Source: Chrysomallon squamiferum
Taxonomy: Eukaryota > Animalia > Mollusca
Reading direction: 5' to 3'
Assembly: GCA_012295275.1 (NCBI GenBank)
Contig: CM022679.1
Location: 12,772,001-12,836,000, forward strand
DNA length: 64,000 nucleotides
Part shown: positions 52,180 through 58,371 of the stretch, piece after piece
Position numbering within the stretch: the first letter of the stretch is position 1
Layout: each line of letters opens with the position of its first letter
The notes under the pieces: model-generated
What the model saw: the letters and a program-made list of their open reading frames with translations, nothing else
Database searches by the model: none
What the model was told of the DNA's origin: nothing
Program-made: the position numbers and the translations under genes

Positions 52180-52185
52180 TTTATT
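52180..52185 (-). terminator. Polyadenylation signal AATAAA of copy A
   Basis: Plus strand tttatt 40 nt past the stop codon; the same context (tacattttattcagaaccc) is kept in all three copies and similarity between copies ends just beyond it. Confidence 0.8.
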
Positions 52186-52225
52186 CAGAACCCATAACCG
52201 TAATTTGTATACAGTTCCGATGAAG

Positions 52226-53081
52226 TTATGTAGCGACGTCATCGCCTCCAGCCTCATCTGCTCCATCTTCATCCACGGCTTCTTCAACTGCAAAAGAATA
52301 CAGTCGTATTTAAATCAATTTCTAGTATATTGCGATTTAGTATCCAGTATAAATAATGACCAACCGTTATCGAATAGCTCAGAAACCAGCTTATTACTTA
52401 CGTTCATTTTTATCTACGAAGTTGAAGCCGTCCAATTCGACTGCGTCCAGTTTGCGATCACCTGTAATTTATATATTACAGCATTAATCTAATTTTAAAA
52501 ATGTGTTTTTCGTTAATTTCACATTAAGTAGTACACTATTCTGATAACATGCATTTCTAATATTCAAGTAAATTTGCCGATTCCTACCATTAGCATCTGC
52601 TTTACGGAATTTTTTCAGCTGGATGACGTTGGTGGGTTTCAGTCCAGAAGCTACAGAGATTTCATGGAGATCGACAAACCCATCTTTATTCAAATCCATT
52701 TCGTGAAAAGCAGCCATGTCGTCAGCATCCTACAAATACATCACAAATTTGTGTACATTATGCAAGTTATCGGGCAATTTGTTATCTTTAATACAAAAGG
52801 AAAGAACGCTTTCAGACGGACTGTTGTATTTATACAGGTCGCGTTTATAAAATGTATTTTTACTACAATACCTCTGCTGGAGGAGCACGCTCGTCCAGTC
52901 CCCTCTTCCTCTTGCACACCTTGCATGCCCAGCTTCTGGCCCATCTGCACGCGGCCATACAACCGTATTTATGAGCGGGACTGACCCTAATTCTGCGAAT
53001 GGATCGAAAGAACCAGCCGTCGACATTCTCTGGTACCAAAGTCAGAACGAAAAGCACCAACAAGAAATATGTAGTTTTCAT
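52226..53081 (-). CDS. Secreted cationic Cys-peptide / double EF-hand precursor, copy A (157 aa; putative antimicrobial peptide precursor); join(53081-52872, 52729-52588, 52461-52402, 52287-52226)
   Basis: All introns are GT-AG with consistent phases (0,1,1); the CDS is 474 nt. Protein: MKTTYFLLVLFVLTLVPENVDG / WFFRSIRRIRVSPAHKYGCMAACRWARSWACKVC / KRKR / GLDERAPPAEDADDMAAFHEM-DLNKDGFVDLHE-ISVASGLKPTNVIQLKKFRKA-DANGDRKLDAVE-LDGFNFVDKNELEEAVDEDGADEAGGDDVAT*. The gene structure is well supported and reproduced in the paralog; the function is inferred. Confidence 0.9.
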
Positions 53082-53298
53082 GCTGCAAAAACACGACGGG
53101 AATTGAATTCTGTGCGTGTAATTTAAGGTAAAAATATTTAATAAGCGTCATTTAACAAAACGAGACTCAAATGCGAAAGGAAACGTTTCAACTTTTTTCC
53201 CCCATTCACAATCACATTTTAAATTTATTGCACTAATACTTGTTATCCAGTCTCAAAATTGATAAATTTTAAAACATCTCCGAAAGCTGAACACTTAC

Positions 53299-53359
53299 CT
53301 GAAGAAGCTATCGCAGACAAAATGATGAGAACAGAAAAACAGCTGGACGACGATTAAGT
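53299..53359 (-). other. Non-coding exon 1 (5' UTR) of copy A
   Basis: Consensus donor CAG|GTAAGT at 53299/53298; acceptor ttttgcag|C ATG at 53082; Inr-like TCACTT with A at 53359, 29 nt from the TATA box; the sequence is conserved in copy B. Confidence 0.8.
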
Positions 53360-53440
53360 GATGAATCTGGAAAGTTGCTCTCTTTATATTTATGTGAAGT
53401 ATCACGTGATCGAAAGTGTACCACGTTATGCACGTTTCTT
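53360..53440 (-). promoter_or_regulatory. Core promoter of copy A: TATA box and E-box/ACGTG cluster
   Basis: TATAAA on minus (plus tttata 53383-53388); palindrome ATCACGTGAT 53401-53410; further CACGT at 53422 and 53431. All are positionally conserved in copy B. Confidence 0.75.
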
Positions 53441-53569
53441 TCGTGCCATATCATGGAAACCATTTGCAAATTGCTTTTTAAATTGTCGTTATTTTTATTT
53501 AAACGTTTTTCGTTTCTTTAGATTATGTCTGACAAATTGCTGAAATTAAATCGCCATCATTGTACAATT

Positions 53570-53671
53570 AACAACAACAACAACAACAACAACAACAACA
53601 ACAACAACAACAACAACAACAACAACAACAACAACAACAATAATAATAATAATAATAATAATAATAATAAC
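53570..53671. repeat. (AAC)n(AAT)n compound microsatellite upstream of copy A
   Basis: Seen directly; it is the source of the poly-N/poly-C ORFs in the track. Confidence 0.95.
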
Positions 53672-55648: not shown

Positions 55649-55654
55649 TTTATT
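55649..55654 (-). terminator. Polyadenylation signal AATAAA of copy B
   Basis: Same position relative to the stop codon as in copy A. Confidence 0.8.
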
Positions 55655-55694
55655 CAGAACCCATAACCGTAATTTGTATACAATTCCGATGAAG

Positions 55695-56547
55695 TTATGT
55701 AGCGACGTCATCGCCTCCAGCCTCATCTGCTCCATCTTCATCCACGGCTTCTTCAACTGCAAAATACAGTCCAATATGAAGCTATTTCTAGTATATATGA
55801 TTTAGTATCGCGTACAAATGTGGAACCATTATGAATAGATCGGAGAAACCAGCTTATTACTTACGTTCATTTTTATCTACGAAGTTGAAGCCGTCCAATT
55901 CGGCTGCGTCCAGTTTGCGATCACCTGTAAAAAAAAAAATTGAAAATGATGACAGTATGTGCTAAATACGTCATTATATTTGTTAATATAATTTTATTAA
56001 ACCGATTAGATATTGAACACGTGATCGATGTGTAAAATCGAAATCTCCGGATTTACCATTTGCATCTGCTTTACGGAATTTTTTCATCTGGATGACGTTG
56101 GTGGGTTTCAATCCAGAAGCTACAGAGATTTCATGGAGATCGACAAACCCATCTTGATTCAAATCCATTTCGTGAAAAGCAGCCATGTCGTCAGCATCCT
56201 ACAAATACATCACAAATTTGTGTACATTATGCAAGTTATTGGGCAATTTGTAATATTTAATACAAAGGAAAAAATGCTTTCAGACACTGTTGTATTTATC
56301 CAGTTCACGTTTATAAAATGTATTTTTACTTCACTACCTCTGCTGGAGGAGCACGCTCGTCCAGTCCCCTCTTCCTCTTGCACACCTTGCATGCCCAGCT
56401 TCTGGCCCATCTGCACGCGGCCATACAACCGTATTTATGGGCGGGACTGACCCTAATTCTGCGAATGGATCGAAAGAACCAGCCGTCGACATTCTCTGGT
56501 ACCAAAGTCAGAACGAAAAGCACCAACAAGAAATGCGTAGCTTTCAT
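55695..56547 (-). CDS. Secreted cationic Cys-peptide / double EF-hand precursor, copy B (157 aa); join(56547-56338, 56198-56057, 55924-55865, 55756-55695)
   Basis: Same exon sizes (210/142/60/62) and GT-AG sites as copy A. By hand comparison there are 9 nt and 5 aa differences (T3A, Y5H, K85Q, L108M, V125A); the mature cationic peptide is identical. Confidence 0.9.
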
Positions 56548-56857
56548 GCTGAAAAAACACGATGGATACGGGAATTGAGTTCTGTTCATTTAATTTAAGG
56601 TCGAAATATTCAACAAAACCAGAATCAGATGCGCAAGAACGTCCCCCTTTTTTCCCCCCCCATTCACAATGACATTTTAATTTACATCTGTGAGTTATTA
56701 TCCGGTCTCATAATTGAAGAGCGGTCGGATTGAGCCGTTTTTTGTTCTGTGTTGTTTTTTTGTTTTTGTTTTTAATTTGGTAATTTTTCTCTTTATTTAT
56801 TTTTTCTCTTTAGTATTATCGAATTTAGTTTTGTAAAGATAAATTTTAAAACTTTAC

Positions 56858-56918
56858 CTGAACAGGTATCGCAGACAGAAAGGATGAGAAGAGAAAAGCA
56901 GCTGGACTACGATTAAGT
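56858..56918 (-). other. Non-coding exon 1 (5' UTR) of copy B
   Basis: Donor CAG|GTAAAG at 56858/56857; acceptor ttttttcag|C ATG at 56548; Inr-like TCACTT with A at 56918, 29 nt from TATA; homologous to 53299-53359. Confidence 0.78.
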
Positions 56919-56997
56919 GACGAATCTGGAAAGTTGCTCTCTTTATAGAGATATAAAGTGTCACGTGGTCGAAAGGGTACCACGTTATGCACGTTTC
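56919..56997 (-). promoter_or_regulatory. Core promoter of copy B: TATA box and E-box/ACGTG cluster
   Basis: TATAAA on minus (56942-56947); GTCACGTGG 56960-56968; CACGT at 56981 and 56990. Confidence 0.75.
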
Positions 56998-58005
56998 GTT
57001 TGGGCCAAATCGTGCAAAATATTTTTGTGTTGCAGACCTGATGTCATTTGTGGGTGGGGTCTCATTCATGTTATTCCTTTAATGTTCTTCCAGTTGTTGT
57101 TGTTGTTGTTATTATTATTATTATTATTATTTTTGTTGTTGTTGTTGTTATTATTGTTATTATTATTATTATACTAATAGCTGCAGTAGTAGAAGCAGTC
57201 AATAAAATATAAAAAGAATACGAATATCAAGAAAAAACAGCAACAGAAAAAGAAAAAGCGGGATTGGATTATCATGTCGATTTACAATAAGTATGCTCTT
57301 TCCTGACGAAAGGAACATTCATATAAAATGAAAAAAAAAAAATTTCAGCTAATTAAACACGTAGTCAATTTTTTATCAGTTTATTTTAATATAATGGAAT
57401 TAATACAAAAAGCGTGAAGAAAGAGAAAGAAAAAAAAAGCATAAAAGTCAGAATATGTAGTAGCTTGTGCCTGTGTCGTGTGTAGTGACCTCACACGATT
57501 GTTGTAGTCATCGATTACTATTACTGATGAGTTTTGCTTCGGTGAGAAGATTCGTGAATTTACTATGGTCATGCAGAAAATTGTTTTTAAAAAAAATTAC
57601 ACTTAACCTTCAGTTAGTTTGAAAATAAATTTCGAAGACATTTTAACTACATTTCTTATTTAGGTGAAAGTGTACTCTTTGCTTTTCTGTTAATATGTTA
57701 CAGTTTTTTTTTTTTTTATTTACTAAATCAGGGTTAAATTTTGCGACTGCAATTGATTACTGCCAATACTTTTCAGTCAGAAAATCATGTCATATACGTA
57801 GTCAGACTAATCGTTTGACTCTATTTACAGTATATCTGGTAACGTTTGGAACAAACATTTTAGTTTATAAAAATCTGCAGCCTGTAATGGATTTCTTTTC
57901 TGCATTTTATAAATTGATTATTAAGTGAATAATTAATACACAGAAACACATTCTTAATTGATGTCTGTTCTTGTGTAAGAAACCAGTTAAATCATTTTAA
58001 TACAT

Positions 58006-58371
58006 TTTATTCAGAACCCGTTTATCCCAAAGTTTGTACAATTCCGATGAAGTTATGCAGCGACGTCATCGTCTCCAGTCTCATCTGCTCCATCTTCATC
58101 CACGGCTTCTTCAACTGCAAAAGAATACAGTCCGATTTAAATTCATTGTACGTACACTGATATAAGATACTTTTCATTTGTTATAGGTTATTTTCCGTTG
58201 ATCATATATGCAAATGTATAAATGATACATCGACATAAATGACCAATAAAATATAAACTACAAAGACGACATAATCGAACAGGCTCAAGAAACAACCAGA
58301 ATATTTTTATATGTTTATTTTTATTTACGAAATTGAAGTGTCCAATTCGGCTGCCTCCTGTTTGCAATCAT
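58006..58371 (-). pseudogene. Truncated third copy (C) of the peptide/EF-hand gene: exon 4 and exon 5 remnants only
   Basis: Exon 5 homolog 58114-58053 (EEAVDEDGADETGDDDVAA*) with intact acceptor and AATAAA at 58006-58011. Exon 4 homolog 58371-58313 is 59 nt (1-nt deletion leading to TAA) and its GT donor has become AT. No exon 2/3 homolog was seen to the right. Confidence 0.85.

Follow-up and report, generated by a model that had tools for sequence, protein, structure and literature searches.

What does a gene make that joins a short, cationic, cysteine-containing segment to a pair of EF-hands behind one signal-like start? Two such genes, here called copies A and B, stand in tandem in a 64,000-nt stretch of Chrysomallon squamiferum, the scaly-foot snail (assembly GCA_012295275.1, contig CM022679.1, positions 12,772,001 to 12,836,000 of the forward strand), and this whole stretch is called the window below. 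Our analyses showed that the two genes belong to a family that is real, spliced and lineage-restricted, and multigene in the vent snail Gigantopelta aegis. We give a probability of about 0.55 to the reading, drawn from sequence and from analogy, that the product is a secreted precursor which would be cut into a 34-residue host-defence (antimicrobial) peptide and an acidic calcium-binding EF-hand carrier. Masking of the peptide by the carrier, antimicrobial activity, cleavage at KRKR and calcium binding are predicted or putative throughout.

Two spliced copies and their predicted precursor

The gene model of copies A and B is proven. Both genes lie on the minus strand, 3,466 bp apart, and in each of them four coding exons yield an intact precursor of 157 amino acids (aa); the introns of copy A (142, 126 and 114 nt) have GT..AG ends. 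Five public runs contain the stretch (X1-X5), and four of these, all from one study, are on record as RNA. Assembled contigs drop variants, and what is said here of RNA contigs holds among the contigs listed. RNA contigs join the exons across introns 1 and 2 in all four runs and across intron 3 (52287/52402) in three of the four, at the predicted CT..AC ends. Their exons 2-4 show 0-2 differences per exon from copy A, and copy B fits slightly worse, with 3-4 differences in exon 2. A contig of X5, a run that also covers introns, matches copy B over 56371-56519 with 0 differences. An earlier note, written from the letters of this DNA alone, had described two intact four-exon copies of 157 aa plus a remnant and had called for the splice junctions to be mapped in RNA; exon models and contig joints bear out this description, and all three introns proved to be joined in RNA contigs.

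Copy B differs from copy A at 9 of 474 nt and at 5 aa, residues 23-60 being identical. The pair is no artefact of assembly, because intron 2 is identical at only 83 of 143 positions and B-type intron contigs occur in X5. The features of the two copies are as follows, each with its basis in brackets.

52872..53081, minus strand: copy A coding exon 1, codons 1-70, with signal, peptide, KRKR and start of the linker (splice joint 52728/52871 in 4 of 4 RNA runs)
53016..53081, minus strand: copy A residues 1-22, a predicted signal peptide (core hydrophobic, with small residues at -3/-1; sequence and family alignments)
52914..53015, minus strand: copy A predicted mature peptide, residues 23-56 (composition; low-confidence helix-turn-helix model over the four Cys)
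52902..52913, minus strand: copy A KRKR, predicted convertase site, residues 57-60 (basic site in aligned rows)
52588..52729, minus strand: copy A coding exon 2, with EF-hand 1 (its loop at 52696-52661) and the first part of EF loop 2 (Pfam; RNA contigs with 1-2 differences)
52402..52461, minus strand: copy A coding exon 3, remainder of EF loop 2 (RNA contigs, sequence)
52180..52287, minus strand: copy A exon 4, acidic tail (coding 52287-52226), stop 52228-52226, AATAAA 52185-52180 (RNA contigs, sequence)
53299..53388, minus strand: copy A TATA-like box (53388-53383), then a first exon predicted as non-coding, up to a GT donor after 53299 (A/B conservation)
56338..56547, minus strand: copy B coding exon 1, peptide at 56481-56380 with the same amino acids as A (A/B comparison; X5 contig)
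56057..56198, minus strand: copy B coding exon 2 (A/B comparison, Pfam)
55865..55924, minus strand: copy B coding exon 3 (A/B comparison)
55649..55756, minus strand: copy B exon 4, coding 55756-55695, stop 55697-55695, AATAAA 55654-55649 (A/B comparison)
56858..56947, minus strand: copy B TATA-like box, then a first exon predicted as non-coding (prediction)

In copy A, residues 23-56 (34 residues, 4.1 kDa, net charge about +8) hold 8 K/R, no D/E and 3 Trp, with Cys at 41, 45, 53 and 56 in the spacing C-X3-C-X7-C-X2-C. The part after KRKR (57-60) has 27 D/E against 10 K/R, 9 of the last 19 residues are acidic, and the EF loops occupy residues 82-93 and 115-126; the net charge of this anionic half is about -17, and that of the peptide plus KRKR about +12. 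No amidation glycine precedes the basic site. The composition and position numbers put forward earlier for K/R, D/E, Trp, Cys, KRKR, EF loops and tail were all recounted as correct. Paired canonical loops were present and Pfam EF-hand_5 scored 32.4 bits on copy A against a cut-off of 25.9, which places the carrier in the EF-hand superfamily; calcium binding is predicted for it. Loop 2 of A and B has Arg for Gly at position 6. This loop (52597-52436) is interrupted by intron 2, and most relatives have Gly at the same position.

A lineage-restricted family and its conserved peptide

When exon 1 was searched among longer proteins, 7 of 106 candidates matched, all of them from G. aegis and 71-80% identical. 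The clusters of these matches comprise 14 proteins of G. aegis, isoforms included, from four or more scaffolds. The earlier note had expected automatic annotation to see only an EF-hand protein, and the G. aegis members are indeed named only EF-hand-like, calmodulin-like or uncharacterized; P0022, for instance, is annotated as 'calmodulin-like protein 5'. A profile of the exon 1 region returned 11 matches among 1.84 billion representatives, 7 of which are family members (4 from G. aegis, 3 gene calls from ENA). Two others, P0020 and P0021, proved on reading to be repeat proteins matched by chance, and P0019 and P0023 were set aside as probable chance on the form of their matches, which are short and multi-stretch and lie in very long proteins. 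The full-length profile matched 45 of 7,992 scored candidates; 26 of these rows belong to the family (from G. aegis or ENA), and the other 19 are generic EF-hand proteins. Every named relative is thus G. aegis, which split from the scaly-foot snail about 66 million years ago (PMC7736800).

A separate search of the peptide part had been called for as well. The peptide alone gave no meaningful match in Pfam, PDB or ESM Atlas, and the 34-residue segment had no relative outside the family among the 1.84 billion representatives. With the full P0001, ESM Atlas returned only EF-hand clusters (score at most 0.83) and PDB only generic EF-hand proteins. One of 83 pattern matches in JGI metagenomes passed; it lies in L001, a phage-like gene with an unrelated chance match of 8 residues, and L001 1190-2260, fetched by that motif match, resembles a phage major capsid gene by eye. 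The ENA proteins P0015-P0018, P0025-P0027 and P0033-P0046 are single-exon calls of family members with other residues in mid-peptide. Several such calls lie on contigs of the same size (354,900 and 786,251 nt), which suggests that other related snails may carry larger clusters.

Conservation was measured on 11 full-length G. aegis sequences, P0002, P0012 and P0014 being excluded as damaged or isoforms. Mean identity among the 11 was highest in the peptide (0.97), followed by the signal (0.82), EF pair (0.70), linker (0.59) and tail (0.45), and copy A compared with the same 11 gave the same order (0.80, 0.70, 0.49, 0.45 and 0.32, respectively), its EF pair being 45-52% identical to any of them. 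Four Cys and one His were invariant in 11 of 11 rows, the basic site was present in 7 of 7 and 11 of 11 rows of two family alignments, and both EF loops had the canonical ligand pattern (positions 1, 3, 5, 9 and 12) in all 15 sequences tested. The earlier note had laid stress on the acidic tail, a stress that did not hold up: the tail is conserved less well than any other part, and several paralogs lack it or have only a short one.

In C. squamiferum itself, a second type of paralog shows 21 base differences from copy B, spread over 14 peptide codons; 9 are silent and 5 are not. All five non-silent differences give the residue found in 11 of 11 G. aegis sequences; therefore, selection acts on the peptide. 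As judged from these alignments, the peptide is under strong constraint; the larger family lies elsewhere in the genome, and the two window copies are a derived and slightly more cationic form of it. RNA contigs of the other paralog type had a depth of 675-3198 in X1 and X4, and in X5 its contig depth was 563 against 75; these depths serve as hints only and give no copy number. The RNA contig of X2 passes, at 52871-53044, from A-type exons 2-4 into the conserved Gigantopelta-like peptide segment, and it is either an assembly chimera through shared words or the product of gene conversion that homogenises the peptide between paralogs.

In addition, three G. aegis genes place other peptides between a signal and a basic site of like kind. 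P0022 has a Cys-free, Trp-rich 14-mer, P0024/P0028 a Cys-free, Trp-rich 19-mer, and P0038 a 3-Cys peptide of 21 residues, for which the searches found no homologue except itself. P0022 and P0038 retain both EF loops, and P0024/28 retain linker and tail only. Such alternative peptides on a shared signal, basic site and carrier support a putative cargo-and-carrier layout with release of the peptide.

Host defence weighed against other functions

In the favoured reading, the signal would be removed after residue 22, and the anionic EF-hand half would offset the charge of the peptide and KRKR in the calcium-rich secretory pathway and help granule packing. A PC1/PC2-type convertase would cut after KR, and a carboxypeptidase would trim back to Cys56. 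The four Cys would close as a nested helical hairpin (41-56, 45-53), and the WFF-led, arginine-rich N-terminal arm would bind microbial membranes. That calcium triggers the release of the peptide is a guess. In the model of the peptide (a 38-mer), helices at 13-25 and 29-36 carry two Cys each (C41/C45 and C53/C56) with a turn between them, and such a helix-turn-helix might, at low confidence, allow nested disulfides; Foldseek gave 0 matches for this model. Helical amphipathicity was marginally above that of shuffled sequences. Complex prediction for the peptide, the EF pair and calcium scored 0.02, which is no answer and weighs neither way.

The host-defence reading is favoured because of composition, gene amplification and precedent. 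Many near-identical copies, together with the high depth of RNA contigs (again a hint only), fit an effector that acts by dosage.

Several observations weigh against this reading. First, both structure models are of low confidence, with a mean predicted local distance difference test score (pLDDT) of 55.4 for the full-length protein and 62.5 for the peptide, and the observed helical moment was reached by 25% of shuffles for residues 23-33, 12% for 41-56 and 5% for 43-53. Second, furin prefers a consensus with Arg at P4, and KRKR has Lys at P4 of its last Arg, so it is no strict furin site. Third, the A-like contigs in X1, X3 and X4 extend only about 51 nt into exon 1, the X2 contig enters a peptide segment of another type with 26 differences, and the A/B version of codons 23-53 appears in no RNA contig among those listed; transcription of the A/B peptide codons is therefore, unlike the gene model, not proven. 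Fourth, P0003, P0006 and P0013 have a short acidic tail or none. Fifth, recent origin, decay or faulty gene models may account for the alternative peptides, because the P0022 carrier is very near the P0007 carrier (on a short branch of a carrier tree that is mostly unresolved), P0024/28 lack EF loops, and P0036 and P0002 look damaged. Finally, near-invariance is typical of receptor ligands, and a peptide that is near-invariant rather than hypervariable also fits a signalling role and keeps it open; the antimicrobial peptide (AMP) repertoires of mussels are variable (PMC7653742), and the vent-snail peptide is near-invariant.

Such a signalling role would make the released peptide a neuropeptide, hormone or pheromone for a receptor of the host or of conspecifics, with the EF-hand half as a granule-packing or calcium-buffering pro-part. 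The near-identity of the peptide across paralogs and species and the adjoining basic site of convertase type speak for it, and so do peptide-plus-EF-hand precursors of neuroendocrine type. Nucleobindin/nesfatin has the order peptide, then EF-hands, and a land-snail command-neuron gene, cited in PMC8398477, reportedly encodes putative neuropeptides together with an EF-hand region; these precursors resemble ours in joining a convertase-released peptide to EF-hands. To our knowledge, their peptides are not Cys-paired cationic segments, and the protein searches found no sequence match to them. Molluscan neuropeptides usually have orthologues phylum-wide, whereas no relative of this peptide was found outside the family among 1.84 billion representatives. 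More than 10 near-identical gene products in one genome would be unusual for a hormone, and the lack of an amidation glycine before the basic site also counts against signalling. No named neuropeptide was among the protein-search matches, and no Pfam hormone family was hit. On balance we hold a signalling function to be unlikely, although it deserves to be kept in mind.

A structural or mineral secretion (mucus, egg coat, periostracum, shell or scale matrix) is rather improbable. Here, the EF-hand pair would be the working part and the cationic arm would bind polyanions, whether cut or uncut. The Atlas look-alikes include secreted EF-hand proteins of Mollusca (133-145 aa), with scores (0.80-0.81) that shuffled proteins often reach, and all 15 sequences tested have their EF ligands intact. 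Against this, the EF half is less conserved than the peptide (0.49 vs 0.80 for copy A against G. aegis), and no aligned row has lost the basic site.

It is also conceivable, at a very low probability, that the family is functional and that A and B, as offshoots of it, are little used and drifting, which would be compatible with host defence. The two differ at 5 otherwise invariant peptide residues, adjoin a decayed third copy and have their peptide codons in none of the RNA contigs listed. On the other hand, both frames and all splice sites are intact, the proportions of differences at non-synonymous and synonymous sites (pN and pS) are 0.014 and 0.039, from only 9 differences, and A-type exons 2-4 are spliced in all four RNA runs. 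A CxxxC...CxxC segment with His and Met that binds metal or sulfide instead of forming disulfides, for detoxification or metal withholding in vent fluid, is just as improbable: four Cys and a His invariant in 11 of 11 rows and the vent habitat of the relatives would suit it, yet it leaves the invariant Trp, Phe and Arg unexplained, two genes carry Cys-free peptides, and the signal peptide routes the product through the secretory pathway, an oxidising compartment.

Known precursors and prior description

The closest precedent for a defence peptide on an EF-hand carrier is mytimycin, an antifungal AMP of Mytilida. Its first exon is non-coding, and its precursor runs from a signal (about 23 aa) through a 54-aa peptide, with 10 invariant Cys and as many as 6 optional ones, and a dibasic site to an anionic extension that contains an EF-hand and whose role is stated as unknown (PMC8004829). 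The vent-snail genes share the order in which signal, Cys peptide and dibasic site precede an anionic EF-hand extension, a non-coding first exon (predicted here) and a multigene family; they differ in having a peptide of 4 Cys and 34 aa rather than 10 invariant Cys and about 54 aa, and in coming from another molluscan class. By analogy, the vent-snail peptide may work like mytimycin. Mytimycin itself was absent from the protein-search matches, in which 19 of the 45 full-length-profile matches were generic EF-hand proteins among 7,992 word-sharing candidates, without a direct comparison to the mytimycin sequence.

Equinin B of Actinia equina is a 34-residue cationic peptide with 8 Cys (Table 2) and CX3C spacing, organised as signal, AMP and prodomain; it was purified from active fractions and is weakly antibacterial, with a minimum inhibitory concentration of 0.25 mg/mL, and its best match (147 aa, 2 exons) has EF-hand annotations (PMC11051070). 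The vent-snail precursor resembles it in the 34-residue cationic Cys peptide, the CX3C spacing and the sequence of signal, peptide and pro-part, and an EF-hand layout is likely in equinin B too. Unlike equinin B, which has 8 Cys and no Trp, the vent-snail peptide has 4 Cys and 3 Trp, and no cnidarian protein was among the protein-search matches.

The four Cys in two pairs and the predicted helix-turn-helix also recall alpha-hairpinins and CS-alpha/alpha peptides (plant AMPs, kappa-hefutoxin, OmTx, flf14 and vil14a). Alpha-hairpinins need C-X3-C-Xn-C-X3-C, that is, two CX3C pairs (PMC7191063), whereas the second pair here is CX2C, the peptide has a long cationic aromatic N-terminal arm and an EF-hand precursor, and no structural match was found. 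The vent-snail peptide therefore belongs to none of mytimycin, equinin B and alpha-hairpinins, because its cysteines fit none of their arrays. Myticalins, mytilins and myticins have a signal, a cationic peptide and a C-terminal extension (PMC11767717, section 4.7; PMC7653742), and mytilins and myticins have 4 disulfides (PMC3039611); unlike the vent-snail precursor, all three lack an EF-hand, and myticalins lack Cys. The claim that the Cys array differs from those of defensins, big defensins, mytilins and myticins was upheld (4 Cys here vs 6-8 or more), and no Pfam family of defensin, big defensin, mytilin, myticin or macin was hit at E up to 1. EF-hand proteins of another layout have been described in venoms (PMC11359391, PMC5673964).

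The full-text literature searched, including searches with short peptide motifs and with most subscription journals and APD, CAMP and DRAMP outside its scope, held no description of the family. The words 'EF-hand' and 'antimicrobial' were absent from the main text of the genome papers on vent snails that were searched (PMC7895826, PMC7142155, PMC7736800 and bioRxiv 10.64898/2026.10.05.756691). In the supplements, 12 of 13 files of PMC7142155 and 10 files of PMC7895826 gave no match to a motif or to 'antimicrobial', and their EF-hand rows were not mappable to sequences. Few gastropod AMP families are on record, and the handful in section 4.7.4 of PMC11767717, a review of 2025, includes none such. 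Nor did the protein searches find a full-length match to a described family, which the earlier note had named as grounds for refutation. The peptide family is thus apparently new within the literature searched, and the precursor layout is already known from mytimycin. The earlier claim of a distinct family stands for the separable, conserved cationic peptide, set apart from mytimycin by its Cys array, and was overstated for the novelty of the architecture, in view of mytimycin and equinin B.

A short, strongly conserved candidate that is likely to have two disulfides is cheap to synthesise and test. It would also be a second molluscan case of an EF-hand pro-part, with a simpler peptide and natural cargo variants; therefore, masking, calcium dependence and processing are directly testable. 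It would be a bold step, and an improbable one, to propose that chemosymbiotic peltospirid vent snails police or farm gammaproteobacterial symbionts with an amplified, near-invariant 4-Cys peptide on a calcium-sensing carrier with interchangeable cargoes, and that, taken together with mytimycin and equinin B, the EF-hand pro-part has evolved more than once in marine animals as a calcium switch for defence peptides. NCR peptides of legumes and BCR peptides of aphids offer a comparison, as they act in symbiont control. G. aegis hosts two endosymbionts (PMC7895826), and if expression maps to the symbiont organ, the peptide would become a candidate for the control of symbionts by a chemosynthetic animal. 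In the oesophageal-gland proteome of G. aegis, 9 predicted masses and 3 calcium-protein words led to no row, a result that is uninformative because the gene models of that paper may differ.

Other features of the window

The remnant, C, consists of two stretches.

58313..58371, minus strand: decayed exon-3-like stretch with a 1-nt gap and no GT donor (likeness to A/B)
57995..58132, minus strand: exon-4-like stretch (58114-58053) with acceptor and 3' untranslated region (89% identity to A over 149 nt)

Profile searches of the 64-kb window found no exon 1 or 2 for it. A weak signal-like match at 8970-9029 was rejected as chance, because it has no start codon and a stop follows directly. Positions 1-51000 are AT-rich (26-34% GC) and rich in microsatellites. 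No neighbouring gene was identified there, because the stop-free frames of at least 90 aa, which were not searched in depth, look mostly low-complexity or non-coding.

Upstream of the coding exons, A and B are 85% conserved over 171 nt. The predicted non-coding first exon lies about 220-310 nt upstream of the ATG in both; it is a prediction, had no cover among the RNA contigs, and no conclusion rests on that gap. The order of a TGCATAAC motif, which may be a bZIP-type site, a CACGTG E-box and TATAAA is kept in both copies (53432-53383 and 56991-56942), and these motifs are possible shared regulatory sites.

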